Shown here: positions 5,936 to 49,211 of the stretch, one piece after another | How the letters are laid out: each line of letters opens with the position of its first letter | How positions within the stretch are numbered: the stretch's first letter is position 1 | NCBI GenBank assembly: GCA_016783715.1 | Contig: JADHWA010000003.1 | Coordinates: forward strand, 1-49,211 | Direction: 5' to 3' | DNA from: Candidatus Omnitrophota bacterium | GTDB lineage: Bacteria > Omnitrophota > Gorgyraeia > Gygaellales > Profunditerraquicolaceae | Length of the DNA stretch: 49,211 bases | The notes under the pieces: model-generated | What the model was told of the DNA's origin: nothing | The model's input: only the letters and a program-made list of their open reading frames with translations | The model's database searches: none | Position numbers and translations under genes: made by a program

Positions 5936-6025
5936 TTAATGAGCAGACGATTTATGGAGCACAACCTGCGACATAAATCGTAGCTGCATCCTTCGCTTAC
6001 GCTCCGTAAGCTCGGGCCTCATTTG
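5936..6025 (-). repeat. Junction element copy 1 (short; lacks the central arm), between rpmJ and rpsM
   Basis: Plus strand ttaatgag...ctcatttg; left arm identical to the start of copy 5. Confidence 0.85.
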
Positions 6026-6026
6026 A

Positions 6027-6140
6027 TTATCCTTGTCTTTGTTTATGTTTAGCATTAGAACAAATTACACGTACTACCCCTCTTCTTTTAATTACCTTGC
6101 ATTTATCGCACATCTTTCTAACCGACGCTTTTACCTTCAC
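6027..6140 (-). CDS. rpmJ: 50S ribosomal protein L36 (zinc-binding type); not in the ORF track
   Basis: Manual translation from [46 protein letters not shown] upstream. Confidence 0.97.
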
Positions 6141-6408: not shown

Positions 6409-6421
6409 TAGAGCTCTTTCT

Positions 6422-6648
6422 TTAATGAGCGCTTGACTTACGATCCGCCGTAGGCGCAAGAGTAAGTCAATGCGCGAATTAACCCCCCACCACTTTTTGA
6501 TCAAGCTTTACAAAATAATATCTAACTATTATTGAATAATTCTAGCTTAAATATTACCAACCCCTCCACTATACAAAAAGTGGTGGGGGGTCAAATTCGG
6601 ACATATAAGTTACGTCGCTATCGCTTCCGTAACTTATGTCCTCATTTG
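6422..6648 (-). repeat. Junction element copy 2 (type A centre), between map and infA
   Basis: ttaatga|gcgc..gcgc|gaatt..ccccccaccacttttt..aaaaagtggtgggggg..ttc|ggac..gtcc|tcatt; contains the map stop codon. Confidence 0.93.
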
Positions 6649-18955: not shown

Positions 18956-19169
18956 TTAATGAGCAGACGATTTATGGAGCGCATCCTGCGACATAAATCG
19001 TAGCTGTATCCTTTTTCCTTATCTGTCAGCGTCTGCGAATTAACCCCGCACCTTTTATTTATTCATAAATTTAGGTATTTTTTGAATACCTAAAAAGGTG
19101 CGGGGTAAGTTCGGACTTTATAAGTTATGTTTCCGCCTACGGCGGATCCATAACTTATGTCCTCACTTA
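18956..19169 (-). repeat. Junction element copy 6 (type C centre), between tuf and rpsJ
   Basis: ttaatga|gcagac..gtctgc|gaattaaccccgcacctttt..aaaaggtgcggggtaagttc|ggac..gtcc|tcactta. Confidence 0.94.
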
Positions 19170-22518: not shown

Positions 22519-22989
22519 TTACCATCTAAAATGCGCGTAGGCCTTGTTTGCATCGGCCATTTTGTGAGTATCATCTCTCTTCTTTATCGCAGAACCCTCT
22601 CCCTTAAAAGCCGAAACGACCTCATCGGCCAGCTTCTCTTTCATGGTTCTGCCTTTTTTATTCTTTGAGAAGTCGCGAATCCAGCGTAAAGCAATCGACG
22701 TCCCTCTCTCCTGCCTTACCTCGATAGGCACCTGATAAGTAGCTCCGCCAACCCGCCTTGGTTTTACCTCTAATCGCGGCCTGACGTTATCAATTGCCTT
22801 ATAGAAAGCCTTAAGCACGTCCGCTTCATTAAGCTGCTTGGCAACAATGTCTAATGCACCATAAACGATCTCTTCGGCAATAGATTTCTTTCCTTTGAGC
22901 ATTACCATATTTATGAATTTCGCCACGACCTTGCTATTATATTTCGGGTCTTCTAAAAGCTGTTTATCATGCGCTCTTCTTCTTCTCAT
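22519..22989 (-). CDS. rpsG: 30S ribosomal protein S7
   Basis: [23 protein letters not shown]. Confidence 0.98.
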
Positions 22990-22990
22990 A

Positions 22991-23233
22991 TTAAATGAGC
23001 ACATAACTTACGAACACGTAGTGCGAGTAAGTTATTGTGCGAGTTTAACCCCCCACCACTTTTTGATAAAGTTTTATAAAATTATATCCTGTACTACCGC
23101 TCACTTCACAGCTAAATTTTACCGCCCCTCCACTATACAAAAAGTGGTGGGGGGTGAGTTCGGACAAATAAGTTATGTCGCTTCTATGATCTGAATTTAA
23201 AATATGCTGCTCCATAACTTATGTCCTCACTTA
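22991..23233 (-). repeat. Junction element copy 7 (type A centre), between rpsL and rpsG
   Basis: ttaaatga|gcac..gtgc|gagttt..ttc|ggac..gtcc|tcactta. Confidence 0.94.
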
Positions 23234-26600: not shown

Positions 26601-27657
26601 GTTTTAGCTCCGGCCCGACTACGATTACAGAGCGGCCAGAGTAGTCAACGCGTTTTCCTAGGAGATTCTGACGGAACCTTCCCTGCTTCCCCTTAAGCAT
26701 ATCTGAGAGAGACTTCAAGGGACGGTTGTTGGCGCCCAGCACCGGGCGACCATGCCTTCCGTTATCCAAGAGCGCATCCACAGCTTCCTGAAGCATGCGC
26801 TTTTCATTGCGGATGATGATCTCCGGGGCGTTGAGCTCAATTAACTTCTTTAATCGATTATTACGGTTAATTACCCGGCGGTATAAGTCATTGAGGTCCG
26901 AAGTAGCAAATCTTCCACCGTCTAAAGGAACCAGAGGCCTTAAATCCGGAGGGATCACCGGCAGGATCTCTAAGATCATCCAGTCCGGCTTATTATCTGA
27001 TTTTTTGAAATCCTCTATCAACTTTAAGGATTTTAGAATCTTGCGGTTATTTGCTGTCTCCTTTGTTTTGTCAAGGTCCTTGCGTAACTTACGGCAATAG
27101 GTATCAACGTCAAGTTCCTTTAGGAGATCCTGGACTGCCCCTGCTCCGATCTTTGCCTTAAAGCCGCTGCCGTACTTCTCAATGGCTTCCTGATATTTAT
27201 CCTCCGTCAGGAGTTCTTTTTTCTTTAAAGGAGTAGTGCCGGGATCCAGGACTACATATTCTTCATAATAGATAACCTTCTCGAGGTTCCTTAAGCCGAT
27301 ATCCAATAAAGCTGCCAGGCGCGAAGGCACGGCTTTAAAAAACCAGATATGAGTGACGGGTGCGGCTAACTCAATATGCCCCATACGCTCACGCCTGACG
27401 CATGAACGGTCGATATGGACACCACAGCGGTCACAGGTTATACCTTTGAATTTTATCCCCTTATACTTGCCGCAATTACACTCCCAGTCGCGGACCGGAC
27501 CGAAGATCTTCTCGCAAAACAGGCCGTCTTTCTCGGGCTTGAGTGTGCGGTAATTGATCGTCTCGGCTTTCTTTACTTCGCCTTTAGACCAGGACTTGAT
27601 CACCTGCGCAGAGGCAATCTTTATGGAGATACTGTCAAAACTAGTGGTCTCTTCCAT
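23602..27657 (-). CDS. rpoC: RNA polymerase subunit beta'
   Basis: NADFDGD, zinc-finger cysteines, [14 protein letters not shown]; start moved to the ATG at 27657. Confidence 0.99.
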
Positions 27658-27659
27658 AT

Positions 27660-27899
27660 TTAATGAGCGCATAACTTACGATCCGCCGTAGGCGCAAGAG
27701 TAAGTTATTGCGCGAATTTAACCCCCCACCACTTTTTGATAAAGTTTTATAAAATTATATCCTGTACTACCACTCACTTCACAGCTAAATTTTACCGCCC
27801 CTCCACTATACAAAAAGTGGTGGGGGGTGAGTTCGACCAGATAAGTTATGTCGTTTCTATCATTCTTGAATACAGCTCCATAACTTATGGTCTCACTCA
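27660..27899 (-). repeat. Junction element copy 8 (type A centre), between rpoB and rpoC
   Basis: ttaatga|gcgc..gcgc|gaattt..ttc|gacc..ggtc|tcactca. Confidence 0.94.
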
Positions 27900-30800
27900 T
27901 TTTGTCTTCTCCGTTTTAATATCCAGACACAATCCCTGCAACTCTTTCAGTAATACGTTAAAGGACTCCGGTGTACCGTGAACCAGACGCTGCTCTCCTT
28001 TTACTATCGCCTCATAGATCCTGGTTCTCCCTGAGACATCGTCACTCTTTACGGTCAGCATCTCTTGTAAGGTAAAGGCAGCCCCATATGCCTCCAGGGC
28101 CCAAACCTCCATCTCCCCTAATCTCTGTCCGCCGAACTGAGCTTTGCCGCCTAATGGCTGCTGAGTGACCAACGAATATGGCCCGATAGAGCGGGCATGG
28201 ATCTTATCATCAACCAGATGAATCAGCTTCATTATATAGATATAGCCTATAGTAACCTCCTGATCAAAAGGTTCTCCGGTGTATCCGTCGTAAAGGCGGA
28301 TTTTACCGCTGGTAGGCAAATTCGCTTTCTTAAGCATCTCTTTGATCTCCGACTCCTTGGCGCCGTCAAAAACGGGTGAGTCAAATTTCAGCCCCAGAAT
28401 TTTACCTGCCCAGCCAAGGTGTGTCTCTAAAATCTGCCCCACATTCATACGCGAGGGAACGCCTAATGGATTCAATATAACCTCGACCGGAGTTCCGTCA
28501 GGCGTAAAGGGCATATCCTCCTGAGGAATGATTTTGGCCACCACACCTTTATTACCGTGCCTACCTGCCAGTTTATCACCCTCGGATACTTTGCGCTTGG
28601 TAGCGATATAAACTACCACCCTCTTTAAGACTCCGGGAGGCAATTCATCGCCCCTGCGAACTTTATCAACCTCCTGCTGCTCCTCTGCCATTAATTCCTG
28701 GAGCTGCTCGTCAAAAGAAGATGCCAGAATCTTGGCCTCTTCGTTATCACTGAAATCCATCTTCTGGATTTTCTTTTTATCTATACCTGAGATCTGGCTT
28801 AAGCGGTTTACTTTTTCTGTCTCAAGAAACTCTACCTCCTGCTTATAGTAGGCCTTAATCTCTCTTATTTTTGCCAGCTCCTTTGATTTCTCCTCTTTGG
28901 TTTTTCTCCCTCTATCCTTACGGGAGAAAACGTGCACCTCTATAACCACCCCTTCGACTCCCGGGGGGGCGGTCAGGGAAGTATCACGGACATCCCCGGC
29001 TTTCTCACCGAATATCGCACGCAACAATCTCTCCTCCGGAGATAATTCAGACTCAGTTTTCGGGGTAACCTTACCTACCATAATATCACCCGGCTCAACC
29101 TTTGCACCCATACGGATAATCCCGGTCTCATCGAGATTGCGCAATGCTTCCTCGCTGACGTTGGGGATATCACGGGTGATATCCTCATTACCCAGGCGGG
29201 TCTCTGTAGCTTCAATATCAAACTCCTCTACGTGTATAGAGGTAAAGGTATCTTCCTTTACCAGCTTATCGCTTAGGATGATCGCATCTTCAAAGTTATA
29301 CCCCCTCCAGGACATAAAGGCACATAAAACATTCTTGCCTAAAGCGAGTTCCCCATTCCTTGTAGCAGTTCCGTCGGCAATAACCTCGCCTTCGGCCACC
29401 CGCTGGCCGATTTTGACGATCGGCCGCTGATTCAGGCAGGTATCTGCGTTTGTGCGCTGGAATTTCTTTAAATGATATATCTTTTTTCCGATGGCGATAG
29501 TGGAGACGTCCAGGTTAGTCACCTTGCCTGAGCCTTCGGCTAACACAACACTACCGGAGTCTGCGGCAACCTTAGCCTCCATCGCCGTACCCACAATCGG
29601 AGCCTCGGTAATCATCAATGGGACTGCCTGCCTCTGCATATTTGACCCCATTAAGGCACGGTTGGCATCATCATGCTCTAAGAACGGAATCAGAGAGGCG
29701 GCCACAGAAACCAACTGCTTCGGAGAAACATCCATATATTGGACCTGCTTGGGCGGAACCTTCGGCAGGAAATCCCCCCGATGTCGGCAGGAAATCTCCT
29801 TCTCCGCAAAATAGCCTTCGTTATCTAAAGGAATGTTCGCCTGGGCAATGACCTTATCTTCTTCTATATCTGCAGTTAAATATTCGATCTTTCGTGTTAC
29901 TCGCCCTTCTTCAACCTTACGATAAGGCGTCTCTATCAGCCCAAGCGGATTTACGCGCGCATAAGTGCTTAAAGATGCAATTAACCCGATATTCGGGCCT
30001 TCAGGGGTTTCAATCGGACAGACGCGGCCGTAATGAGAAGGATGGATATCTCTCACCTCGAACCCTGCTCGCTCCCGCGATAGGCCTCCCGGCCCTAATG
30101 CACTCAAGCGTCGCTTATGAGTCATCTCTGCCAGTGGATTGACCTGGTCCATAAATTGAGATAACTGGCTGCGGGCAAAGAAATCCCGTATCTGATTAGA
30201 TAAAAGTTTCGAATTAATCAAATAATGGATATTGAGCGTGTCTAAATCACCCAGGATGCCCAGTCTTTCACGGATAGAGCGCTCAACCCGGCTTAATCCG
30301 ATCCTAACCTGATTCTGGACCAGTTCTCCTACCGTCTTCACACGACGGTTACCCAGATGATCGATATCATCGATCTTTCCTTCTCCGCTTTTGAGTTTTA
30401 TCAGATACTCCATTACCTTTATTACGGTGGCCGAATCCAATATCCTCTTCTCTAAGGAGACTTCCATCCCCAGCTTGCGATTAAGGATAAATCTACCGAC
30501 CTTCTCTAAATCATACCTGGCCGGATCAAAGAACAATCTATAAAATAAGCCTTCTGCTGCTTCCTTGGTTACCGGTTCTACCGGACGCATCTTACGGTAA
30601 AAATCTAAATAGGCCTCTTCTTTACTTTTTGTGGGATCTTTCCTGAGTGTATTCTCGATCTCGGGATATTCTGCGCCGAATGCTGTGATGATATCCTGGT
30701 CACTGGAAAACCCCAAAATTCTCAATATCTGAGTGGCAGGGAAGTTTCTTCGCCTATCGACATAAGCCAGGATGGTCTCTGTAAGGTCATACTTAAATTC

Positions 30801-34378: not shown

Positions 34379-34383
34379 AATAG

Positions 34384-35029: not shown

Positions 35030-35076
35030 CAGTCACGGTTTTGGAGACCGTTGGTTTGCCATTAACCGACGCTCCT
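35006..35076 (-). tRNA. tRNA-Trp (CCA); 3' CCA not encoded
   Basis: AGGAGCG acceptor stem, anticodon arm ACGGT-CTCCAAA-ACCGT, GGTTCGAG T-loop. Confidence 0.95.
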
Positions 35077-35080
35077 ATTT

Positions 35081-35269
35081 TTATCGAGCAGATAACTTAC
35101 GGAGCGATGCGTCGTAAGTTATAACTGCTTCATATCTTATTAGCAGTGTCTGCGAGCTAACCCCGCACCCAGTCTAGTATCTACTACTACTTGTTTGGGT
35201 GCGGGGTAAATTCTGACAGAGACTTATGTTCTCCGTCCTCGGCGGATCCATAAGTCTCGTCATCATTTA
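35081..35269 (-). repeat. Junction element copy 10 (type C centre), between rpmG and tRNA-Trp
   Basis: ttatcga|gcaga..tctgc|gagctaaccccgcaccc..gggtgcggggtaaattc|tgac..gtca|tcattta. Confidence 0.88.
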
Positions 35270-35412: not shown

Positions 35413-35457
35413 AACAGTTTTACCGTTTAAATTTACTGCCCCTGTCTAAAAAAAATA

Positions 35458-35799: not shown

Positions 35800-35960
35800 C
35801 TTTTTACCCACCTTCGCAGAAAGCCATGTCCGTAAGGCCGTGGGTGAATGCATAGTGGGTAACCCGCCAAAGACGAAAGTTCTCATGAGCGAAGGCGGAT
35901 ACTGCTTCGGCGGGTTTCGCCGAAGCAAGCGAAGATGCTTTTGGCCGATAGGCCGTAGAG
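35800..35960. other. Hairpin-rich non-coding segment downstream of rsmA, including an IS200/IS605-end-like motif
   Basis: ttacccac..gtgggtaa stem enclosing aagccatgtccgtaaggccgtggg; tgcttcggcg/cgccgaagca and ggcc-gata-ggcc hairpins. Confidence 0.45.
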
Positions 35961-35962
35961 CT

Positions 35963-37698: not shown

Positions 37699-38717
37699 TT
37701 AAAGGTCTTAATATAGGAAAGATCTTTGAGTTCCTGGAGCCACACATCCATCTTCTCGCCCATCTCATTATTGACCAGGATCAAGCGTATGTCTTCCTGA
37801 ACCTCCTCCAGGCTTAATTCCCGCGGAGGGATTAAGCTATCGAGCCTGAAGATATAATATGCGCGATCTATCTTAAATGGTTTCGAAGACTCTCCCGGCT
37901 TAAGGTCAAATACTGTCTTCTCGATATCCTCTCTTAGTTCACCGCCCCGATAGACCCTGATCTTATTCATCGAGAGAGAATATCTTTGAGCCAAATCTTC
38001 GAGGCCCTCGCCATTCTTTACGGCTCTGGAGACTTTATCTACCAGCCCCCGATCATCTATACGCAGGGTCCTGAACTCCCATTGTTGCGGCTCTTTAAAA
38101 TCCTGCTTGTGCTGCTGATAGTATGTGGTTACCTCCGAAGGCGTAACGATAATCTTGCCTCGAACATTTTCCTCAATTACCGCATACATCAGCATCTGTT
38201 CGGAGATCTTTTCTTCCAGGTCAGCCTGGGTTATTCCCTGACTGGATAAATCATCGCGGAAATCCGCTTCGCTTCGATAATTCCCTTTGATCTGGTTAAT
38301 CCTGGATTCCAGAACCTCCGGATTAAGTACTATATCGTCCTTCTTAGCCTGCTGCAGGATCAGACGATCTTCTATCAGCTTCCAAAGAAGCTCCGGCTCC
38401 ATCTGCTCCATCTTATCGTCTAGCTGTTTACCGGTATATTCCTGGGCCATCTGCATGCGCATAAAATTCGAAAAATCTTGGAGGTCACGGCGGGTGATCG
38501 CCTCGGAGTTAACGATAACAATGATCTTCTCCTGGGCATAGCAGTTCAGCGCAAAGCATAAAGCGCAAAGCGTAAAACTAAAGCTTAAAACGAAAAGCTT
38601 TGCGCTTAAAACTTTTCCCGCCAGAATATTCCATTGCAGGCGGGACCCCGCAATAGATTTATTTTTGTGGCGGGGAACTTTGCGTTTTGCGCTTTGAGTT
38701 TTGAACTTATCCATCAT
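37695..38717 (-). CDS. SurA/PrsA-like peptidyl-prolyl isomerase chaperone
   Basis: IVN.E.IT SurA N-terminal pattern, degenerate parvulin region, surA-pdxA-rsmA synteny. Confidence 0.8.
   Translation of the reverse strand: MMDKFKTQSAKRKVPRHKNKSIAGSRLQWNILAGKVLSAKLFVLSFSFTLCALCFALNCYAQEKIIVIVNSEAITRRDLQDFSNFMRMQMAQEYTGKQLDDKMEQMEPELLWKLIEDRLILQQAKKDDIVLNPEVLESRINQIKGNYRSEADFRDDLSSQGITQADLEEKISEQMLMYAVIEENVRGKIIVTPSEVTTYYQQHKQDFKEPQQWEFRTLRIDDRGLVDKVSRAVKNGEGLEDLAQRYSLSMNKIRVYRGGELREDIEKTVFDLKPGESSKPFKIDRAYYIFRLDSLIPPRELSLEEVQEDIRLILVNNEMGEKMDVWLQELKDLSYIKTFK
38543..38707. repeat. Inverted heptamer-repeat palindrome within the 5' end of the SurA-like gene
   Basis: Minus strand GTTC-AAAACTC-AAAGCGC-AAAACGC-AAAG ... 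CTTTGCG-CTTTATG-CTTTGCG-CTGAAC. Confidence 0.75.
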
Positions 38718-40608
38718 TTAATTCAACCTTTTTAAATGTACTGATTGCTTCTCTTAAGAGCCGACAGTAAAGATCAAATCCTACCGCGGCAATAAATCCG
38801 TGCTGCTCCTGGCCCAACAGATTACCTGCTCCCCTTATCTCTAAATCCTCCATGGCAATCTTAAAACCTGCCCCCAGATATGAGTGCTCCTTAAGCGCCT
38901 CCAGCCTCTTCTGGGCATCACTATCTAAGATCCCATGCTTTGGAATAAAAAAATATGCATAGGCGGACCTGTCAAATCTGCCTACCCGTCCGCGCAACTG
39001 ATGCAGATCAGACAATCCGAAATGCTGCGCATTATTTACTATAATCGTGTTAACATTCGGTATGTCTATCCCGGACTCAATGATCATCGTAGCGACCAGG
39101 ATATCGATCGCCCCCTCAAGGAACCCAAGCATTACCTTCTCCAGGGTCTTCGGCGGCATCCTTCCGTGGACAACCCCAATTCTGGTATTTGCCGGCAATA
39201 GAGATGCTATTCTTTCTCTAATCCGCGAGATGTCCTCAATGCGATTATGTATAAAAAAGACCTGTCCTTTTCTTTTGAGTTCCTGCCGGCATACCTGAAG
39301 GAGCAGGTCTTCATCATATTTTACCACAACCGTCTTAATAGGCAATCTATTTTGGGGAGGCGTATTAATTACCGAGAGATCCTTGGCTCCGGTCAGACTC
39401 ATATATAATGTCCTAGGAATTGGGGTAGCAGTAAGCGTCAATATATCAGTAGTAAGGCGCACCTTTTTGAGCTTCTCCTTATGTTTTACTCCGAAACGCT
39501 GCTCCTCATCGATAATCACAAGCCCTAGGTCCTTAAAACCTATATCGTCAGACAGTAGCCGGTGCGTGCCGATAATTACATCAACACTCCCTCTCTTTAG
39601 CTCCTCGACAATCGCTTCCTGCTCGGACTTGGTTTTAAAGCGCGAGAGCATCGCCACGTTTAATGGAAAATCCCGAAGGCGCTGGGTAAAATTTTTGTAG
39701 TGCTGCTCAGCCAGAATGGTCGTGGGAACCAAAAAGGCAACCTGCTTATTATCCATTACCGCCTTGAATGCTGCGCGCATAGCTACCTCGGTCTTACCAT
39801 AGCCTACATCACCGCAGAGCAACCTGTCCATTGGCGCAGATGACTCCATGTCGGCTTTGACCTCCTGGGTGGCTTTGATCTGACCCGGAGTCTCTTTATA
39901 GGGAAACCCTGCCTCAAATTGCTCCTGCCAATCTGAATCCTTCGAATATACAAACCCCTTTACCGACAGGCGCATCGCCTGCAGAGTAAGCAGCTCCCAG
40001 GCCATCTTCTGAATACCCCTTCTTGCCCTGGTTTTTATCCGCAGCCACTCCTTAGTCCCCAGGCGGGAAAGCTTAGGCCTGCGCACCTGAAAGGCGATAT
40101 ATTTCTGCACCAGATGCATTGACTCCACCGGCACATAGAGCTTCTCCTGGCGGTCATATTCGACAACGATGTGATCCCTGTATTTTTGACCAACCTTGAT
40201 CTTCTCCAGCCCCAGAAATCTTCCGATGCCGTGCTGATTATGCACCAGGTAGTCGCCGATATTTAAATCCAGGAAATTATCGACGGGGAATTCCTCGGTA
40301 AAGCTAGCCTTCTTTGTGGCGCTATGTGTTTTCCTTACCGGCAGGATTATCGCCATCTTATGCTCCCAGAGGCCTTCCTGCGTCAGGGGGTTAAAGCTCT
40401 TGATTGAAGAGATTGTATCCAGGTCTAACTTGATTCGTATCGGCAACTCGAAGGCGAAAGGAAAGATATCGATAATCTGGCCTCGGCGGGCAAAATCACC
40501 CTCTTCTTTTACACTATCAAACCTTCTGTAGCCAAGTTCACTCAAGGCTACAAAGAAAGGTTCTGTGTCAATATTGGCGCCGGTATAAATTTTGAGGGAT
40601 TTAAACAT
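38707..40608 (-). CDS. mfd: Transcription-repair coupling factor, compact form (~633 aa)
   Basis: UvrB-like segment (GDFARRG.IIDIFP), RID (VH.QHGIG), CGDVGYGKT, DEEQRFG, QLRGRVGR, DLEIRGAGNLLG. Confidence 0.9.
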   Translation of the reverse strand: MFKSLKIYTGANIDTEPFFVALSELGYRRFDSVKEEGDFARRGQIIDIFPFAFELPIRIKLDLDTISSIKSFNPLTQEGLWEHKMAIILPVRKTHSATKKASFTEEFPVDNFLDLNIGDYLVHNQHGIGRFLGLEKIKVGQKYRDHIVVEYDRQEKLYVPVESMHLVQKYIAFQVRRPKLSRLGTKEWLRIKTRARRGIQKMAWELLTLQAMRLSVKGFVYSKDSDWQEQFEAGFPYKETPGQIKATQEVKADMESSAPMDRLLCGDVGYGKTEVAMRAAFKAVMDNKQVAFLVPTTILAEQHYKNFTQRLRDFPLNVAMLSRFKTKSEQEAIVEELKRGSVDVIIGTHRLLSDDIGFKDLGLVIIDEEQRFGVKHKEKLKKVRLTTDILTLTATPIPRTLYMSLTGAKDLSVINTPPQNRLPIKTVVVKYDEDLLLQVCRQELKRKGQVFFIHNRIEDISRIRERIASLLPANTRIGVVHGRMPPKTLEKVMLGFLEGAIDILVATMIIESGIDIPNVNTIIVNNAQHFGLSDLHQLRGRVGRFDRSAYAYFFIPKHGILDSDAQKRLEALKEHSYLGAGFKIAMEDLEIRGAGNLLGQEQHGFIAAVGFDLYCRLLREAISTFKKVELNDG

Positions 40609-40615
40609 TGAAGAT

Positions 40616-42814
40616 TTACTTTGCAGGCCTTCGTGTCCAGGCAAGAACCAAAGGCGAGGCAATGTAAATTGTGGAATAGATGCCGGAGATAAAACCGACA
40701 ATTAAGGTAAAGGCAAAGTTGCTTAAAACCTCTCCTCCGAATAAGAAAATCGAGATAACCACCAATAACGTTACTACCGTAGTAAGTACCGTACGGCCGA
40801 GCGTCTGATTAACACTCAGGTTTATCAGATCATAGAGCTTGAGCTTCCTGTATAGGTGGCTGTTCTCCCTGACACGGTCATAGATAACGATTGTATCGTT
40901 AATAGAGTAACCGGCGATAGTTAAAAATGCGGTAATGCTCAAGAGATCCAACTGTCTGCCGGTAATCATCAAGAATGCCAGTGCAATCCCTACATCATGC
41001 AGCAGGGCGATTACACCTGCCATGGCAAAGTTAAAGTGCTTGAATCGAAAAGAGACATATGCCAATATCCCGATCAGAGACCAGATCAGGGCCTTGATTG
41101 CCTTGTGCTTCAGATGTCTGCCGGCCACCGGACCGACGCGTTCTATTCTCAAGATTTCGATATCCTGATCAGGAAAACGCTCATTCAGCCTATCGGTAAT
41201 CAGCTCTGTTCTATCCCTTTTAGTCCTGATTAGAACCACGCGGGGATCTTCTCTGAACTGCTGGATACTGGCATCTTCAATCTGCAGTTCATCAAGCAAC
41301 CGCCGCAGCGAGTCTACCGGGACTGCCGTCTTAAAACTATACTCCTGTAATTGACCGCCGACGAAGTCTATCCCATGAGCCTCGGAGCCTCTCTTGAAGT
41401 AAGTAAAAATCCCTATCCCGATAATAACCAGGGAAACCAGATAAAAGAACCTTCTCCTGCGGATAAAATCGATTTTTGTCACTCTGAATAGCCTGATCAT
41501 CGGCAGGATTTTGAGAATCTTTAAGCTCAATAATAGCTCAAATATCAACCTGGTAACCACAATAGCGGTAAATAAACTGGCAGCCAGACCTATAGTTAAT
41601 GTCACCGCAAACCCTCTAATCGGACCAGTGCCGAATTGAAAGAGCAGGAATGCCGCAATTAAGGTAGTAAGATTGGAATCTAAGATTGCGCTGAATGCCT
41701 TACTATAGCCGTTTGATATTGCCGTGCGCAGATGTTTGCCGGCAGAGAGTTCCTCTTTTATACGTTCATTGATCAGCACATTGGCATCTACCGCCATACC
41801 CAAAGCAAGTGCGATACCGGCGATACCGGGAAGTGTCAGTGTTGCCGATATTCCGGGAAAGAGAACCGGAAGTATCCCCAATCCTCCCAGGATAAGTAAT
41901 AGATTCAGCATAAGCGCGATATCTGCAATCATCCCGGCTATAATATAATAAATCAACATAAAGACCAGGACTAATCCTGCGCCGATAAGCGTGGCTTTGA
42001 TGCCTTTATTTATCGAATCCTGCCCCAACAAAGGACCAATGGTCCTCTCTTCTTCAATATGCATTGGTGCAGGTAAGGCACCGATCCGCAAGACAATCGC
42101 CAGATCCTGCGCCTGTTCCGGGGAAAATCGGCCGCTGATTACAGCTTCTCCTGAAGGTATTGCCTCCCTGATACGGGGAGCTGACTGCACTTTTCCGTCT
42201 AAGACGATCGCCAGCCTCTTTCCGACGTTATCTGTGGTAATCTCGGCAAACTCCCTGGCGCCATCGGAATTAAATTCCAGGGCCACGATAGGCTTACTAA
42301 GCTGGTCAAAGCGCACGTAGGCATTAGAGAGCGCTCCTCCGGTCAAAGCCGAATCTTCATTTATAAGCAGAGGTTCATCATCCTCATCTGCTCGCAGCAA
42401 CTCATACCCCGCCGGTACCTCACCGGCCAAGGCCTGCTGCAGCGCTGCCACATCAGGGGAGACAAGTTTAAACTCCAGGAGCGCGGTCTTGCCGATCAAT
42501 TCGATTGCCCGCTGCCGGTCGGTGATCCCGGGAAGCTGTACGACAATCTCATCCTCCCCCTGCCTCTGTATCGTCGGCTCTCGCACGCCGAAGGCATCGA
42601 TTCTGTTTCTGATCACCTCCAGCGCCCGATCACAGGCATCAATCCTCTCTTCGGGAGGCAGGTCTGCGGTATCGACCTTTAGCAAAAGATGCATCCCGCC
42701 CTTTAGATCAAGTCCTAAATTTATCCTTTTATCCAAAGGAAATGCATAATAAGCAAAAAAACCAACCAGCCCCAGAATAAAGATTAACCTGTAGATTATT
42801 TTTCTATTCATCAA
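40616..42814 (-). CDS. secDF: Fused protein translocase subunit SecDF
   Basis: LGLDLKGG, AVDANVLI.ERI, GIDF.GG, GYSINDTIV.YDR. Confidence 0.96.
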   Translation of the reverse strand: MMNRKIIYRLIFILGLVGFFAYYAFPLDKRINLGLDLKGGMHLLLKVDTADLPPEERIDACDRALEVIRNRIDAFGVREPTIQRQGEDEIVVQLPGITDRQRAIELIGKTALLEFKLVSPDVAALQQALAGEVPAGYELLRADEDDEPLLINEDSALTGGALSNAYVRFDQLSKPIVALEFNSDGAREFAEITTDNVGKRLAIVLDGKVQSAPRIREAIPSGEAVISGRFSPEQAQDLAIVLRIGALPAPMHIEEERTIGPLLGQDSINKGIKATLIGAGLVLVFMLIYYIIAGMIADIALMLNLLLILGGLGILPVLFPGISATLTLPGIAGIALALGMAVDANVLINERIKEELSAGKHLRTAISNGYSKAFSAILDSNLTTLIAAFLLFQFGTGPIRGFAVTLTIGLAASLFTAIVVTRLIFELLLSLKILKILPMIRLFRVTKIDFIRRRRFFYLVSLVIIGIGIFTYFKRGSEAHGIDFVGGQLQEYSFKTAVPVDSLRRLLDELQIEDASIQQFREDPRVVLIRTKRDRTELITDRLNERFPDQDIEILRIERVGPVAGRHLKHKAIKALIWSLIGILAYVSFRFKHFNFAMAGVIALLHDVGIALAFLMITGRQLDLLSITAFLTIAGYSINDTIVIYDRVRENSHLYRKLKLYDLINLSVNQTLGRTVLTTVVTLLVVISIFLFGGEVLSNFAFTLIVGFISGIYSTIYIASPLVLAWTRRPAK

Positions 42815-42820
42815 TACCTT

Positions 42821-43114
42821 TTATGAAGATTGCACTGATTGTGTTTTCTTTAAATAGGCGATGCAATTCTTATCGATCTCAACTTTTACATTGTCGTCAA
42901 TACGCAGAGTCAGGGTCTTATCTTTTAAGTTGACGATTGTACCATGAATTCCGCTGGACGTCACTACTTCATCATTCTTATTGAGTTTACCAAGCATAGC
43001 CTTGTGATCTTTTTCTTTACGTTTCTGCGGACGAATCAGCAAAAAATAAAAAATAACAAAGATGAAAATAAGCGGAAATAAACTTACTATTGGATTTCCT
43101 TGTGCTGTTGGCAT
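42821..43114 (-). CDS. yajC: Preprotein translocase subunit YajC
   Basis: FYFLLIRPQ, V.T.SGIHG. Confidence 0.96.
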   Translation of the reverse strand: MPTAQGNPIVSLFPLIFIFVIFYFLLIRPQKRKEKDHKAMLGKLNKNDEVVTSSGIHGTIVNLKDKTLTLRIDDNVKVEIDKNCIAYLKKTQSVQSS

Positions 43115-43125
43115 CTTTCTCTCCT

Positions 43126-43265
43126 TTAAATGAGCCTCGCCTTATGCGTGGGGCTAATCCTTCGATTCACTTGGCTCGCTCAGGATGGTGAGCGAGGGCT
43201 GTTACGTCTGTCCGAATCGAACCATTTATCCCGAGTGCCGCCATATTGGCCGGACCAGGGATCTT
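43126..43265 (-). repeat. Junction element copy 11 (partial or divergent) joined to other palindromes, between rpsP and yajC
   Basis: ttaaatga|gcctcgc..gcgtggggc|taat left end, then ttcgattc..gaatcgaa and ctcgctca..tgagcgag stems. Confidence 0.55.
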
Positions 43266-43273
43266 AATTAGTC

Positions 43274-43519
43274 TTATCCTGTCTTAGCTAACTTCTTCAC
43301 CAGACTCTTTACTGTTTCTGACGGCTGGGCCCCCTTACTCTTCCAATGATCAAAACGCTCTTTTTTTATACTGGCCTCCCCGGTAATAGGATTATATGTG
43401 CCTATCTCTTCGATAAAACTGCTGTCTCTGCCTGCAGTTCTCTCGCAGACACAGATCCGGAAATACGGCTTTTTTTTGGGATTCTTCCCAACTCGCCTTA
43501 AACGTATACGAACTGCCAT
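43274..43519 (-). CDS. rpsP: 30S ribosomal protein S16
   Basis: MAVRIRL.R.G, IE.IG.YNP, GAQPS.TV; AGGAGG before the ATG at 43519. Confidence 0.97.
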   Translation of the reverse strand: MAVRIRLRRVGKNPKKKPYFRICVCERTAGRDSSFIEEIGTYNPITGEASIKKERFDHWKSKGAQPSETVKSLVKKLAKTG

Positions 43520-43533
43520 TTCTTGTTCCTCCT

Positions 43534-43761
43534 TTAATGAGCGCATATTTTACGGAAGCTCCTTTAGGAGCAACGTAAAATATAGCTTCTTTTGTTTACT
43601 AATCTATCAGCGTGCGCGAATTAAACCCCCCACCACTTTTTAATCTAACTACCTTGTGTATAAAACCACTTACCACTTTTTCTCCAAAAAGTGGTGGGGG
43701 GTCAAGTTCCCCCGCACCCAGTCTAGTATCTACGCTACTTGTTTGGGTGCGGGGTCACTTG
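43534..43761 (-). repeat. Junction element copy 12 (type A centre, type C module used as right arm), between trpE and rpsP
   Basis: ttaatga|gcgca..tgcgc|gaatt..gttc|ccccgcaccc..gggtgcgggg|tcacttg. Confidence 0.92.
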
Positions 43762-45255
43762 ACGTATAGCCTCAAACAAGGCCTTTGCCTTATTGACGGT
43801 TTCAAGATATTCCTTATTGGGCAGAGAATCCGCCACAATTCCCGCCCCTGCCTGAATATAGGCGACTCCCCCTTTGATCACTATCGTCCTTATGGTAATA
43901 CAGGTATCCATATTATGAGAGAAACTAAAATAACCCACACAGCCCGCATAGGGGCCACGGCGTAGATTCTCTAACTCATCTATGATCTCCATGGCGCGGA
44001 TCTTTGGACTGCCGCTGACTGTCCCTGCGGGAAAGCCAGCCCTCAAGACCTCATATACATCTAGATTATCCTGCAACCTCCCTCTGACCTCAGTCACCAG
44101 ATGCATTACATGGGAGTATTTTTCTACGTTCATAAACTCACTTAGCTTGACAGTCCCGGGCTTACAGACCCGGCCTAAATCATTCCTTCCGAGATCAACC
44201 AGCATTATGTGCTCTGCTCTCTCCTTTGAGTCATGCAAGAGCTCCTTCTCAAGCCGCAGATCCTCAGCCTGATTCCGCCCCCGTGGCCGCGTGCCGGCAA
44301 TCGGCCTGGTCCTAACCACCCCTTCCTCACAACGCACCAGCATCTCAGGAGATGACCCGACTAAATAAAAACCCTTAAACTTCAAGAAATACATATAGGG
44401 CGAGGGATTGAGGCTGCGCAGAGCCCGATAGATATCAAAAGGCTCTCCGGTAATTTTCGCAGAGAACCGCTGCGAGAGAACAGTCTGGATAATATCACCT
44501 TTTCTTATGAAAACCTTTGCCTTCTTAATAATCTCCTGAAATTCACTCCTTTTAAAGTTAGAGTTGATTCTTATTTTATTCGATTTGCCGCTTTTTTGCT
44601 TAACAAGGGTAATCTCTCCTTTAAGCTGAGCCTGGATATCCTTGATCTTCCCAAGGGCCTGCCTATAAAGCCTGCGTTTGGACTTCTGTGATAGGGCCGC
44701 CTTCTTTGGCTCCGGGAGGATGACATTTGTGACGATCTTTATAGTATGATTTATATGATCAAAGACCAGAATAGTATCGGTAAGCATAAATACCGAATCA
44801 GGCAGCCTTAAATCATCCCGGTTTTTATCGGGGATATCTTCAAAGAACCTGATCAGGTCATAACCGGCAAAACCTACCAGGCCGCCGTAAAACCGAGGAA
44901 GCCCCTTTATCGGAACCGCCTTGAACCTCTGCATAATCTTTTTTATCTCCTGCAGCGGGTCGCTCTTGGTTATAAAACGGCGGACACTCTTCCTGCTAAA
45001 ATCCCTGATCTCGATATTTCTTGCCTTACTGCGTATGACCAACGAAGGATTAGCCCCCAGGAATGAAAATTTGGCGATATTCTCCTGGCCTTCAACCGAT
45101 TCTAAGAGAAAGGAGTACTCGCCTTTTTTGATCTTTAAAAACGCAGATACCGGTGTATCCAGGTCGGCATTGATCTGGCCGTAGACCGGAATCACATTCC
45201 CTTTTTTGGTAAGTTTTAAAAACTCTTCTTCTGATGGATAATAAGAATTTCTCAT
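43735..45255 (-). CDS. trpE: Anthranilate synthase component I
   Basis: FLLESVE, NPSPYM, PIAGTRPRG, EHIMLVDLGRND, PAGTVSGSPK. Confidence 0.95.
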   Translation of the reverse strand: MRNSYYPSEEEFLKLTKKGNVIPVYGQINADLDTPVSAFLKIKKGEYSFLLESVEGQENIAKFSFLGANPSLVIRSKARNIEIRDFSRKSVRRFITKSDPLQEIKKIMQRFKAVPIKGLPRFYGGLVGFAGYDLIRFFEDIPDKNRDDLRLPDSVFMLTDTILVFDHINHTIKIVTNVILPEPKKAALSQKSKRRLYRQALGKIKDIQAQLKGEITLVKQKSGKSNKIRINSNFKRSEFQEIIKKAKVFIRKGDIIQTVLSQRFSAKITGEPFDIYRALRSLNPSPYMYFLKFKGFYLVGSSPEMLVRCEEGVVRTRPIAGTRPRGRNQAEDLRLEKELLHDSKERAEHIMLVDLGRNDLGRVCKPGTVKLSEFMNVEKYSHVMHLVTEVRGRLQDNLDVYEVLRAGFPAGTVSGSPKIRAMEIIDELENLRRGPYAGCVGYFSFSHNMDTCITIRTIVIKGGVAYIQAGAGIVADSLPNKEYLETVNKAKALFEAIRQVTPHPNK

Positions 45256-45590
45256 TACTTGATTAACCTGTAAAAACAGCTGCGATTACCCGTATGACAG
45301 GCTACCCCACTCTGGCGCACACTGATAAGCAGCGCATCCATATCGCAGTCGTATCTAACCTGCTTGACAAACTGAAAATTTCCCGAAGTTGCCCCCTTCA
45401 CCCAATACTGGCGGCGGGATCGCGACCAAAAAACAGTTTTTTTGAGCCTGAGTGTACGCTTCAGGGATTCCTTATTCATATAGGCTAGCATCAATACTTC
45501 TTTGCTCTTATAATCCTGGATGACCGCCGGAACCAACCCCTTGCGGTCATACTTTATTAAATTTGCATCGAATTTCTTTGTCTTTTTCAT
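45255..45590 (-). CDS. hisI: Phosphoribosyl-AMP cyclohydrolase
   Basis: WSRSR..W.KG.TSG, DCD.D, ACHTG..SCF. Confidence 0.96.
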
Positions 45591-46342
45591 AATCTAACCG
45601 GCACTCCTTTATCCTTTAGGTAATCCTTTACCTGTTTAACCGAAAGCTCCTGGTAGTGAAATACCGAAGCAGCCAGAGCTGCATCAGCGCCAGATCTAGC
45701 GAAGACCTCATAAAAATGCTCTAGCCTACCTGCTCCTCCGGAGGCAATCACCGGAATCCCTACAGCAGTACTGATTGTCTTTGTCAATTCAAGGTCATAA
45801 CCGTCTTTTGTGCCGTCATAATCCATGCTGGTCAAGAGGATCTCTCCGGCCCCTAATCCGGCAACCTGCTTCGACCATTCTACGGCATCCAGGTCCACCG
45901 GAGTCCTGCCGCCGTTAATATAAACTTTCCAGCCATCTGCCTCTTTTTTGACATCAATAGCAACCACGATACACTGGCTGCCGAACTTAAGGCTAGCCCT
46001 GCTTATAAGCTCAGGCAACTTCACTGCCGCAGTATTAATTGAAACTTTATCCGCTCCGGCATTTAAGAGATCCCTGATATCTGAGATATTTCTCACCCCG
46101 CCGCCTACGGTAAAAGGCATGTAGATATTCACCGCGATCGCCTCTACCAGACCTATCAGCGTAGATCTGTTTTCGTAGCTGGCGGTGATATCTAAAAATA
46201 CTAACTCGTCTGCCTTCTGCTGATCATAGATCCTGGCCACCTCTACCGGGTCGCCGGCATCACGCAGACCTAAAAACTTTACACCTTTTACCACCCGGCC
46301 CTCTTTAATGTCCAGGCAGGGGATTATACGCTTGGTAAGCAT
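45587..46342 (-). CDS. hisF: Imidazole glycerol phosphate synthase subunit HisF
   Basis: [21 protein letters not shown]. Confidence 0.97.
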
Positions 46343-46346
46343 GCTT

Positions 46347-46781
46347 TTACTTTACGGGCTTCTCTAAAAACACCTGAAGCAGTCCCCAGGTTTCTTTGCC
46401 AGCTTTCCCGTCAACCTTCAGATCATTAGCCTTCTGAAAGGCCCGGACAGCCTCTTTGGTTCTTTGGCCCATTTTACCGTCAATCTTCCCCGGGTCAAAG
46501 CCGGCACTACTTAAAGCCATCTGAATATCTTTTGTCGATGGCTTAGGACTCTCTAACTTCGGACTCTTCTTTGCTTGCTTCTGATTAAGTTCCCAGATTA
46601 CATCCTTTAGATCAGATATCTCATCATCTTTAAGCTCGACCTGCGATTCAAGGAGCGAAATCTGATCTCTTAGCCCCTGCACCTGTAAATCGTCACCTTT
46701 CTTAGTTGATGTGGCGCAGCCACCAAGAACAAAAACAAACCCGACTAACAACAATAGCACAAAAATTCTTTTTATATACAT
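46347..46781 (-). CDS. Lipoprotein with coiled coil and C-terminal peptidoglycan-binding domain
   Basis: Signal peptide with LGGC lipobox; IQ.AL..AG.DPGKIDG.MG..T..AV..FQ....L.VDG..G.ETW. Confidence 0.85.
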
Positions 46782-47521
46782 ACTCCCTCTCCTTTCTTAG
46801 TTCCGCCGATCTTCAGCGCTGCACTCAATGTAAACTTCCCTTCGTATAAGGCCTTGCCGACAATTACTCCGGTTAGACCCTCTTTCTCCAGAACCTTAAG
46901 CCGCCTTAGGTCCTGCAGGCAAGATACCCCCCCTGAGGCGATAACCTTCATGGTGCTTATCTTAAGCAGTTTTTTTAGCTCTCTTATGCTCGGGCCTTTT
47001 AAGGTTCCGTCTTTGGAGATATCCGTATAGATAACCTCTCTGAAACCGTTATTCTCCAATGAAGCAGCAAACTCCGAAGTCCTTATCCGCCGGCCGGAAC
47101 TCTTCCAGCCCTTGGTCATCAATATGTCATTCTTGACATCAATGCTGACAATGACCTTGCCTCTAAATTCTCTGGACACCTTCTCCAGAAACGCCTGATC
47201 CTGGATAGCCCTGGTGCCCAAGACTACCCGCCGCACTCCAAACCCTAGAACCTTTCTTATCATCCCAATACTTCTTAGGCCTCCGCCGAACTGTACCGGG
47301 ATATCAATATTTTGGGCAATCTGCTTTACTATCTTTAAGTTTTTTGGCACCCCTTGAATTGCCCCATTCAGGTCAACCAGGTGAATTAGCCCAGCGCCCT
47401 GGCTTACCCAATCCCTGGCAGTCTTTAGAGCATCCCGGGAGTAGACCCTCTGATCTCTCTCTCCCTGGACAAGCCGCACGACCAAGCCATCTCTTAAATC
47501 AATAGCAGGAATTATCAGCAT
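46772..47521 (-). CDS. hisA: ProFAR isomerase HisA
   Basis: IPAIDL..G..VRL.QG, HLVDL, TDIS.DGTL. Confidence 0.96.
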   Translation of the reverse strand: MLIIPAIDLRDGLVVRLVQGERDQRVYSRDALKTARDWVSQGAGLIHLVDLNGAIQGVPKNLKIVKQIAQNIDIPVQFGGGLRSIGMIRKVLGFGVRRVVLGTRAIQDQAFLEKVSREFRGKVIVSIDVKNDILMTKGWKSSGRRIRTSEFAASLENNGFREVIYTDISKDGTLKGPSIRELKKLLKISTMKVIASGGVSCLQDLRRLKVLEKEGLTGVIVGKALYEGKFTLSAALKIGGTKKGEGVCI

Positions 47522-48141
47522 AGCTCTACAAAGTTTTTTAAAATCGCCAGACCCTCTTCCTGGCTCTTCTCCGGATGGAACTGAACCCCATAGAGGTTAT
47601 CTTTGGAAACAACAGCAGCAAATTCAAAACCATATTCGCAGGTGGCCTCAATCGTCTTTTTATCCGCCGGAGCCACATAATAAGAGTGACAGAAATATAC
47701 ACAGGGATCAGCCGCCAGGCCTCTTAAAAGAGGGCAATCTGACTCCCGAGTTGAAGGCTTGGTGATTTTAAGTTGATTCCACCCTATGTGGGGGATTTTT
47801 TTAACCTGACGGGGATCAAAACGCCTAACCTCCCCTGCAAACAGGCCTAACCCCTTCTCCTGCCTGGCTTCCTGACTTCTCTCAAAGAGCAGCTGCATCC
47901 CCAGACAGATCCCCAAAAGGGTCCTTTTACTGTTTAGTTCCTGCTTCAGGAAAGTATCGAACCCCTTCTTCTTCAACTCCAAGATAGCATCATCAAAAGC
48001 GCCTACCCCGGGAAGGACTATCTTATCCCCATCTTTCAACTTTTTAGGGGAGGAAATTACAGAAGTCTCCTGGCCAAAAGACTCCAGGGCCTTCTGTACG
48101 CTGTGAATATTCCCCATTCCATAGTCAATAATCGCGATCAT
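47515..48141 (-). CDS. hisH: Imidazole glycerol phosphate synthase subunit HisH
   Basis: DYGMGN, PGVG, GICLGMQ, QFHPEKS. Confidence 0.97.
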   Translation of the reverse strand: MIAIIDYGMGNIHSVQKALESFGQETSVISSPKKLKDGDKIVLPGVGAFDDAILELKKKGFDTFLKQELNSKRTLLGICLGMQLLFERSQEARQEKGLGLFAGEVRRFDPRQVKKIPHIGWNQLKITKPSTRESDCPLLRGLAADPCVYFCHSYYVAPADKKTIEATCEYGFEFAAVVSKDNLYGVQFHPEKSQEEGLAILKNFVELC

Positions 48142-48142
48142 T

Positions 48143-48338
48143 TTAATGAGCAGACGACTTACGGAACGACAGTGACGTAAGTCGTAGGCCGTAAGGCCGT
48201 CTACGAATTAACCCCGCCCTTTTGGCAGGGTAGCTTATTTAAATTATATCCCCGCCAAAAGAGCGGGAAAAGTTCGGACATATAAGTTATGTCGTCAAAA
48301 TTATTAATATATTGTTCCATAACTTATGTCCTCACTTA
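48143..48338 (-). repeat. Junction element copy 13 (type D centre), between hisB and hisH
   Basis: ttaatga|gcagac..gtctac|gaattaaccccgcccttttggc..gccaaaagagcggg..ttc|ggac..gtcc|tcactta. Confidence 0.93.
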
Positions 48339-48947
48339 ATCAATCAAACCTTTTGTTGAAGGGATACCTTTACGGCGGGCATCTATCTGCGTGGCCTGGT
48401 CAAGAGCCTTGCCAAAAGCCTTAAATACAGGCTCAAGGTTTGTGTGCAGGTCAGTATTGGCGCCTGAGATTTTTATATTTAGGTTCATCCCTAATTTATT
48501 AGCAAAGGACTCAAAGAAATGGTTGGCATATTCCAGATTATATCCGAACTCATCTCTATCAATAACTGAACCAACCGGCCTTTCTATCTCTTTAAAGAAA
48601 GCTCTGCCGCTTAAGTCAAGAACGACATTAGCTACCACATCCTCCATAGGGAATGAAGCTGACCCGCTGCGCTTAATGCCTAATTTATCTGTTAAGGCAT
48701 CCTTGAATGCCTCCCCTAAGACAAGCCCGATATCTTCATTTGTATGATGCATATCGACCTTTGCAGTATCCCCCTTGGCCTTCAGCTCTAAATCAAACAA
48801 CCCGTGAAAAGCAAATAGCTCCAGCATATGGTTCAGGAGCCCGATCGGAGTATCTATCTTAGACTTACCTTCTCCGTCAACAGTTAACTTAACCGTTATA
48901 TTGGTTTCGGTAGTCTTACGGGATTTCGTAGCAACTCTCTTTTTCAT
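48336..48947 (-). CDS. hisB: Imidazoleglycerol-phosphate dehydratase
   Basis: R.T.ET, HML, D.HHT.ED, FKAFG.AL, PSTKG. Confidence 0.93.
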   Translation of the reverse strand: MKKRVATKSRKTTETNITVKLTVDGEGKSKIDTPIGLLNHMLELFAFHGLFDLELKAKGDTAKVDMHHTNEDIGLVLGEAFKDALTDKLGIKRSGSASFPMEDVVANVVLDLSGRAFFKEIERPVGSVIDRDEFGYNLEYANHFFESFANKLGMNLNIKISGANTDLHTNLEPVFKAFGKALDQATQIDARRKGIPSTKGLID

Positions 48948-48960
48948 AGTGATTACCCCT

Positions 48961-49211
48961 TTAATGAGCGCATAACTTAGCGAAGCTAAATTATAGCGTC
49001 TATGGTTTTACATGTCGATCAGCGTGCGCTAATTACACCCCCCACCACTTTTTAATAAAAGTCTAAAATAAAATTAACGGTATAACTAACCATTCTTTAC
49101 TTAAATCCCCCAACCCACTCTTTCTCTAAAAAGTGGTGGGGGGTAAATTCGGACACGGCTTTTTTGCCAATAGCTTACGTCATTTCATTCCGTAAACTAT
49201 GTCCTCATTTA
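48961..49211 (-). repeat. Junction element copy 14 (type A centre), upstream of hisB; ends at the window edge
   Basis: ttaatga|gcgca..tgcgc|taatt..ttc|ggac..gtcc|tcattta. Confidence 0.92.

Follow-up and report, generated by a model that had tools for sequence, protein, structure and literature searches.

Here, we present an analysis of a family of repeated intergenic hairpin elements in Candidatus Omnitrophota. The analysis centers on copy 12, one of the copies in a 49,211-nt stretch of DNA (referred to as the window) from a metagenome-assembled genome (MAG) that we call G000. A GC-rich hairpin, type C, fills the first hairpin slot of copy 12 and the center slot of copy 10, and such mosaicism, with breakpoints on short connectors, holds throughout G000. 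We consider it probable that these elements form a mosaic family resembling REPINs and BIMEs, whose members are gained and lost at gene junctions and exchange their hairpins by recombining at the connectors. The G000 assembly comprises 716,592 bp in 45 contigs, has a G+C content of 45.6%, and is 65% complete; the nearest relatives of its ribosomal protein S7 are in Candidatus Omnitrophota MAGs (74 to 81% identity). The genes in the window are all encoded on the minus strand; among them are rpoB and the genes for S12, S7, EF-Tu, S10, L3, L11, and S16.

The type C hairpin, ccccgcacccagtctagtatctac..tacttgtttgggtgcgggg, is present twice in the window, at 43710-43754 (45 nt) in copy 12 and at 35161-35206 (46 nt) in copy 10. 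The two differ only in the loop (tac versus gc, i.e., one indel and two substitutions), and their first 22 nt are identical. Copy 12 is located between a gene for a TrpE-like anthranilate synthase (trpE) upstream and the S16 gene downstream. A first-pass annotation, made from the sequence of the window, had claimed that the center of copy 10 reappears in copy 12 in the slot of the right arm, and both parts of this claim are borne out: the module is the same, and on the plus strand, it is bracketed by ...GTCAAGTTC and TCACTTGA, which in other copies enclose the arm GGACATATAAGTTA...GTCC. In the mRNA sense, this position is the first slot (H1), after the upstream gene. Allowing up to three mismatches, the 22-mer gave 14 matches in G000, none in the reversed control, and none in 40 relatives; because of this difference, the type C repeat is not due to chance, and among the genomes searched, the module is specific to G000.

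Read in the mRNA sense, the elements follow one order of parts: the upstream stop codon, connector c1, hairpin H1, connector c2, a GC-rich center hairpin of 26 to 112 nt, connector c3, hairpin H3, connector c4, and then either a Shine-Dalgarno (SD) sequence with the ATG or the ATG directly. The connector consensus sequences are WAARTGAG (c1; usually TAAGTGAGG or TCAAATGAGG), CGAAYTTR (c2; CGAACTTA or CGAATTTGA), TYAAATTCG (c3; TTAAATTCG or TTAATTCG), and GCTCATTWAA (c4), and some elements carry an A-rich linker, GCAGACGCTGATAGATTAGTAAACAA...GACGCTA, ahead of H3. H1 and H3 have the connectors as their feet: c1 and c2 pair across a GA/GA internal loop in H1, and c3 and c4 pair across a TC/TC internal loop in H3. 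For c3/c4, 42 units covary concordantly versus 7 discordantly (Fisher p=1.5e-6); for c1/c2, all five pairs are Watson-Crick pairs in 13 of 16 correctly delimited elements, in seven compensatory versions that include TAAGT/ACTTA, CAAAT/ATTTG, TGAGT/ACTCA, and TGAAT/ATTCA. Ungapped covariation counts for H3 are unusable beyond 5 bp because bulges shift the register. Pairing in tandem hairpins (c1 with c2, and c3 with c4) fits the covariation better than a four-way junction formed by c1/c4 and c2/c3. The GA/GA versus TC/TC internal loops show that H1 and H3 are the same type of hairpin in inverted form, and the whole element is therefore an inverted doublet like a REPIN, with a spacer hairpin in the middle. 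Slots may be absent or repeated; elements with 1, 2, 3, 4, or 5 hairpins were seen, as were tandem half-elements.

To follow modules through G000, elements were parsed with c4 as the anchor. Seven of the 58 records were removed: four matched by chance, two were copies 2 and 14 read from the opposite strand, and one was an element that had been parsed wrongly. This left 51 units, 23 of which have three slots. A repeat survey yielded 240 CCC-initiated hairpins in families of 4 to 16 copies; grouping the branches of minimum-free-energy folds gave noisy clusters in which unrelated pieces were joined, and it served only for spotting module reuse. Type C hairpins number 16, with nine in the center slot, six in the first slot, and one between c1 and c3, and the loop occurs in both orientations in both the center and first slots. 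All 16 are flanked by connectors, so that the search for free-standing modules that the first-pass annotation had proposed found none of type C in G000. Besides copy 12, type C fills the first slot at C22:5191, C24:7823, C31:2573, C40:36367, and C37:5455, in each case with different neighbors. Other modules move similarly: the 26-nt hairpin CCCCGCCCTTGCATGCAAGGGCGGGG fills the H3 slot in at least six elements, can also take the H1 slot, and is found as the only hairpin between c1 and c4, and the short hairpin CCTTGACATC occurs in both the middle and H3 slots.

Modules assort almost independently between slots. Among the 23 three-slot elements, the Mantel Spearman correlation of module identities was 0.14 for H1 and center, 0.04 (p=0.23) for center and H3, and −0.03 (p=0.62) for H1 and H3. 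Pairs with at least 85% identity numbered seven for H1, eight for the center, and five for H3, and only one, one, and none of them, respectively, shared a second module at that level. Within the window, copies 4 and 13 share a left arm (96% identity between 15534-15614 and 48134-48214), as do copies 5 and 6 (88% between 18462-18565 and 18958-19061), in both cases next to different centers, as had been noted at the outset. Breakpoints fall on connectors: two elements at different junctions in G001 agree in 166 of the 170 positions between c1 and TTAAATTCGCA but are unrelated past that point; copy 8 combines a center as in copy 7 with an H3 as in copy 2; and the left arm common to copies 4 and 13 ends at GAATTAACCC. 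Thus, the modularity, assortment, and breakpoints behind the original proposal of cassette-like shuffling of hairpins at the junction hold genome-wide. Two details of that proposal did not survive: center types are far more numerous than four, and copies 6 and 10, said to have the same center, have different modules with only the 9-nt stem start CCCCGCACC in common.

The family is widespread in the phylum. The pattern AATTCGC-N30-60-GCTCATTWA was found in 27 of the 41 genomes of the order. Across the phylum, 145 of 301 sampled genomes have it, a single genome having as many as 42 matches, compared with 11 matches in all in the reversed control; the matches listed are hairpins in which the ACTTAYG/CRTAAGT core is conserved and the stems carry compensatory changes. 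A stricter 24-base pattern, applied to one genome per species for 185,579 species, matched at least 119 stretches. Of the 80 matches listed, 66 carried the label Omnitrophota, Omnitrophica, or Saelkia, 8 were in MAGs with labels beginning with Planctomycet, 5 were unnamed, and 1 carried the label Syntrophomonadaceae; based on these listed matches, the family appears to be essentially confined to Omnitrophota. Some centers, among them CCCAGCACTAATTT and CCCTTGACA, are common to G000 and G001.

Elements are gained and lost at gene junctions, as the occupancy of orthologous junctions varies among six genomes of the same family. An element is present at S12/S7 in G000 and G001, at S7/EF-G in G001 and G022, at EF-G/EF-Tu in G001 and G209, at EF-Tu/S10 in G000, at S10/L3 in G000, G001, G209, and G010, and at L23/L2 in G010, and G004 has no element across the 10-kb stretch compared; locus L004 has the layout of G209 and was not counted separately. 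The S12 and S7 genes overlap as ATGA in L001, and ~250 nt of element lie between them in G000. At EF-G/EF-Tu, the filled site in L004 reads TAA[GTGAGG...GCTCAT]TAA versus a single TAA in L002 and L003, and this one comparison of filled and empty sites suggests that TAA may be duplicated on insertion; the S12/S7 and rpoB/rpoC sites have no clean TAA duplication. In the window, the empty EF-G/EF-Tu junction (20421-20440, minus strand) has TAAATGAG right after the stop codon, and this c1-like motif without an element could be a preferred target or a remnant. Other kinds of hairpins also insert at S12/S7; in G010 (L126:14553-14724), this junction holds a different long palindrome of GTAACTAGTAA-type repeats that lacks the connectors.

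How might such mosaics arise? In the scheme that we favor, four connectors delimit up to three or more slots for hairpins from one stop codon to the next start region, and whole elements come and go at gene junctions on the time scale of genera. The apical hairpins would be exchanged among copies within a genome by homology-guided recombination, i.e., by gene conversion or by template switching at stalled forks, with the shared connectors and stems anchoring the exchange and copy 12 being one of the resulting mosaics. Loops would be flipped when the arms of a single stem recombine with each other. The elements are presumably cotranscribed with the flanking genes and may benefit the host. We credit the exchange to recombination because modules never occur outside the connector grammar, breakpoints lie on connectors, and loops flip in place; likewise, recombination or template switching is favored over the independent insertion of hairpins because there is no free-standing copy of type C.

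Several observations weigh against this scheme. No enzyme or process has been tied to hairpin exchange. H1 and center identity are weakly and positively correlated (p=0.024), and approximately 6 of the 23 H1 segments were mis-delimited by the parser and kept in the assortment test, which adds noise. Because G000 is 65% complete, counts are lower bounds and absences are weak. A selfish repeat would not usually keep its primary sequence across a whole phylum, as the connectors and the ACTTAYG/CRTAAGT core do; this speaks for a host function or for a trans-acting factor that is itself conserved. Finally, the elements have a strong polarity, with the gene downstream of the c4 end on the same strand in 45 of 52 intergenic units and a start codon within 40 nt of c4 in 41 of 51 units, which points to a constraint at the level of RNA or translation.

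These last points bear on a possibility that we hold tentatively and that is compatible with swapping by recombination, namely, that the elements are host-functional punctuation of operons at the RNA level. According to this model, an RNase would cut the polycistronic transcript at the connectors, H1 would serve as a 3' stabilizer of the upstream cistron, and H3 with c4 would give the downstream cistron a short, protected leader or a 5' end that is nearly leaderless; with selection on structure and connectors alone, the interiors would be free to swap. In support of this, c4 lies directly before start regions, with an SD-like spacer in 26 of the 51 units and, in 13, an ATG 3 to 4 nt after GCTCATTWAA with no SD-like sequence (S7, rpoC, L11, S10, and L3 are among the latter). 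Moreover, the connectors and the H3 core are conserved phylum-wide with compensatory stem changes, the ATGA overlap of S12 and S7 in L001 implies that coupling had to survive insertion, and elements are denser in the window, which holds ribosomal protein and RNA polymerase operons (13 to 14 in 49 kb), than in the other 667 kb (~40 c4 units). However, genera within a single family differ in which junctions are occupied, and module loops are found in either orientation. We also detected no signature of RNA structure in the sense strand of the G000 units, by either an excess of G-T over A-C mismatches or strand energies: isolated G-T versus A-C mismatches number 2 versus 1 in H1, 6 versus 7 in the center, and 8 versus 5 in H3, and for H3, the sense strand gives the weaker hairpin, being lower in energy in only 14 of 51 units. 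The sole RNA run (X10) gave 11 short contig pieces, one of which (151 nt) spans 43403-43553 with seven differences, and these indicate neither transcription nor transcript ends. We are more doubtful of a stronger version, in which a dedicated, putative nuclease or binding protein of the phylum would recognize the four-connector grammar and cut or organize polycistronic mRNA, with element turnover causing operon hypervariability.

Neither intrinsic terminators nor promoters are enriched in window positions 30000-49211, where terminator-like sites numbered 25 versus 20.0 +/- 4.7 in shuffled sequence, in a scan blind to loops of >8 nt, and sigma-70 promoter-like sites 22 versus 26.9 +/- 5.3. At 48990-49018, the A-rich linker of copy 14 scores as a sigma-70-like promoter (TCGACA-17-TATAAT, 11/12); the homologous linkers of other copies are weaker promoter-like versions ending in TATATT or TATAAC, and some elements may carry a promoter. 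Selection for UNCG tetraloops in H3 was dropped because folds of G000 units give mixed loops, and a small open reading frame (ORF) from GAGGAC-N7-ATG inside H1 was rejected, as the frame in copy 8 stops after 11 codons. The 3' strand of H3 frequently carries an in-frame ATG (GTTATG), e.g., at 23002-23004, 27670-27672, and 43544-43546. The ORF list therefore starts S7, rpoC, and S16 five to nine codons early (MCSFN..., MRSLN...); relatives start at the later ATG. At the other end of copy 12, the TrpE-like ORF passes through c1 and is terminated inside the type C hairpin by a TAG in the loop (43735-43737, within 43735-43762), adding ~8 residues beyond the chorismate-binding domain.

It is very unlikely that each GC-rich hairpin is an autonomous REP-like unit (REP, repetitive extragenic palindrome) that is slotted in singly by a RAYT (REP-associated tyrosine transposase), an IS200-type Y1 transposase, or another HUH enzyme. 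PF01797 (RAYT/Y1 transposase) proteins are common in the order (29 of 41 genomes), type C is amplified in the G000 lineage only, and the inverted H1/H3 doublet is as in a REPIN. However, PF01797 counts do not follow element abundance: the element-rich genomes G022 (13 matches) and G032 (12) have no PF01797 protein, and G019, G036, and G038, with 3 to 4 each, have no elements. No PF01797 match and no Y1 transposase were found in G000, a genome 65% complete in which TnpB was not searched for, and the 16 type C hairpins all obey the connector grammar. Eighteen Y1 transposase loci were scanned for connectors, and the flanks were read at eight RAYT-like loci, where they consist of a different repeat (GGGACA...GTCCC) rather than these connectors. 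Those eight loci (L097-L103 and L107, from G010, G012, G006, G004, G008, G014, and G015) carry RAYT-like Y1 genes of 163 to 238 codons with GGGACAC...GTCCC-type flanks, a classical REP-RAYT arrangement that is unrelated to the connector elements. H1 and H3 are mutually inverted and not one form on one strand, as the subterminal hairpins of IS200/IS605 are. Based on the lack of co-occurrence, of connector flanks, and of a match in G000, a RAYT link of the connector elements was rejected.

That copy 12 is a chimeric misassembly across repeated hairpins is extremely improbable, since, even though assembly graphs break at repeats (Logan contigs begin at 43615-43621) and read depth piles up ~tenfold over elements, contigs assembled independently in two studies carry the same junctions with 0 to 1 differences and type C occupies the first slot at five to six further loci, next to other neighbors. 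Specifically, a 1964-nt contig from an independent study (X3 record 21) spans 43621-45502, including the A center, the junction, the C hairpin, and trpE, with one difference, which disposes of the concern about misassembly raised at the outset; X1 record 4, from a sample that is possibly the source of this assembly, spans 43615-45338 with no differences, and X6 record 27, from a related strain, spans 43696-44625 with 12 differences. Depth peaks, joints, and loose ends at elements come from paralogous copies and other organisms and were not taken to indicate population variants.

The elements match no Rfam family. With Rfam 15, only two tRNAs in the whole window reached the gathering score, and copies 7 and 12 gave only chance-level matches of miRNA type (E 0.027 to 0.87), far below gathering scores; a hammerhead-like reading of AATGAGC...GCGAA was discarded, as the core G is absent by eye and Rfam gave no match. 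Enterobacterial BIMEs are mosaics of palindromic units and short conserved linkers. MITEs such as ERIC/IRU and Correia elements are noncoding, 100 to 250 bp long, have inverted termini, reside in transcribed intergenic regions, and fold as RNA. The Omnitrophota elements resemble them in size, intergenic location, presence/absence variation between relatives, and inverted termini, with c1 (AARTGAG) and c4 (CTCATTT) complementary over 7 nt with one G-T pair; however, their internal modularity is far greater, they are conserved phylum-wide, and no parent insertion sequence is known, no search having been made for a coding element bounded by c1/c4. In mitochondria, tRNAs act as folded punctuation between the cistrons of polycistronic transcripts; there, as here, start codons lie at or a few nucleotides from the 3' end of the structure and lack SD sequences, but in the present elements, neither a tRNA-like fold nor evidence of RNase P or Z was found. 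In plastid DNA, small hairpin-associated inversions flip loops between the arms of inverted repeats, and in sponge mitochondria, repetitive hairpin-forming elements reportedly invade intergenic spacers; loop flips and spacer invasion are shared with the elements described here, but both of those cases are from organelle genomes and lack a connector grammar.

In Neisseria, mosaic intergenic regions have been described in which palindromic units of several types and short linker motifs occur in varied order (PMC3733652). Like BIMEs and these mosaics, the Omnitrophota elements combine several palindrome types with conserved linkers in varying arrangements; the sequences are unrelated, however, and here, the linkers are paired hairpin feet, and the element ends abut stop and start codons. 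With REPINs and REP-RAYT systems (PMC3337134, PMC3116915, PMC3733652), they share short, GC-rich, repeated intergenic palindromes, lineage-specific amplification, and two inverted hairpin units around a spacer that can form local hairpins or one long hairpin. In contrast to these, no RAYT association was found for them, their connectors are phylum-wide whereas REPs are species or genus specific, and they run exactly from stop codon to start region with fixed polarity and at least three exchangeable slots. REP palindromes have an unpaired GTAG or CGTC tag at one end (PMC3733652). Type C is flanked by connectors without GTAG, and in the H3 linker, the sequence ahead of the cargo hairpins is GACGCTA, which on the opposite strand is TAGCGTC. 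The closest kinds are, thus, REPINs, BIMEs, and transcribed MITEs, from which the elements differ in their grammar, stop-to-start placement, phylum-wide conservation, and lack of a RAYT link. No description of these elements was found in the literature searched, with supplementary files outside its scope, and the words "hairpin," "palindrom," and "intergenic" are absent from the portions of Omnitrophota genome papers examined; the family appears to be new to the literature.

Table 1. Parts of copy 12, from the trpE end to the S16 end, followed by the other elements of the window
Feature	Position	Strand	Description
Copy 12, connector c1	43755..43762	-	Sense TCAAGTGA; directly 3' of the trpE frame; pairs with c2 (CAAGT/ACTTG, 5/5 Watson-Crick)
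Copy 12, first slot (H1 position)	43710..43754	-	Type C GC-rich hairpin; object of the main finding
Copy 12, connector c2	43702..43709	-	Sense GAACTTGA
Copy 12, center	43626..43701	-	Type A hairpin CCCCCCACCAC...GTGGTGGGGGG; short version, 76 nt
Copy 12, connector c3	43617..43625	-	Sense TTTAATTCG; partner is c4
Copy 12, H3 slot	43542..43616	-	A-rich linker GCACGCTGATAGATTAGTAAACAA..., then hairpin TATATTTTACG...CGTAAAATATGC
Copy 12, connector c4	43533..43541	-	Sense CTCATTAAA; followed by GGAGG and the S16 ATG at 43519
Copy 1	5938..6041	-	Two hairpins, without GC center
Copy 2	6413..6648	-	H1, A center, H3; apical part of H3 identical to that of copy 8
Copy 3	11972..12222	-	H1, A center; H3 slot with linker and 26-nt type D hairpin
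Copy 4	15534..15737	-	H1, B center, H3; H3 96% identical to that of copy 13
Copy 5, S10/L3 junction	18462..18657	-	H1, B center, H3; H3 88% identical to that of copy 6
Copy 6, EF-Tu/S10 junction	18958..19169	-	H1, center CCCCGCACCTTTT..., H3
Copy 7, S12/S7 junction	22983..23233	-	Junction empty in most relatives
Copy 8, rpoB/rpoC junction	27651..27904	-	Mosaic of copy 7 center and copy 2 H3
Copy 9, upstream of L11	33616..33853	-	H1, A center, H3
Copy 10, after tRNA-Trp	35072..35269	-	Type C hairpin in center slot, 35161-35206
Copy 11	43129..43275	-	Other architecture, with GATCCC...GGGAT hairpin and others; ends in GCTCATTTAAAGGAG
Copy 13	48134..48338	-	H1, center CCCGCTCTTTTGGCGGGG..., H3
Copy 14	48952..49210	-	H1, A center, linker and hairpin; truncated by the window end

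The remaining elements of the window are listed in Table 1. Near copy 10, two further units of ~200 nt each lie downstream of tRNA-Trp (35005-35077) on the minus strand (34578-35021). Both end in a copy of the T-arm and 3' acceptor strand of this tRNA, GGTTCGAGCCCTGCCGCTCCTGTTGGTTACGG, and have the palindrome AAGGGGAAAAGATTGTTTTCCCCTT inside; neither ARAGORN nor Rfam made a call in these units.

Altogether, our findings describe a large intergenic repeat family with an explicit grammar that is found in one phylum and in approximately half of the sampled Omnitrophota genomes. With breakpoints on connectors of 7 to 9 nt, it offers a natural case of hairpin cassette exchange that is useful for the study of recombination between dispersed palindromes. 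It also matters for annotation: ORF callers push starts into H3, genes such as trpE can run into a hairpin, and assemblies break at elements. According to a 2026 preprint, the S12-S7-EF-G-EF-Tu-S10-L3 operon lies within "hypervariable" windows in 150 of 223 Omnitrophota genomes, by a mechanism left unresolved there (10.64898/2026.06.07.730766). It is plausible that element turnover causes this hypervariability of the ribosomal protein operon. Moreover, 13 essential or highly expressed genes start 3 to 4 nt past an element without an SD sequence, which raises the question of how translation is initiated there. If a phylum-specific punctuation system were at work, mRNA units would end in a 3' hairpin and begin with a very short leader or none, which would account for these starts, and the hairpin interiors would be free for exchange.

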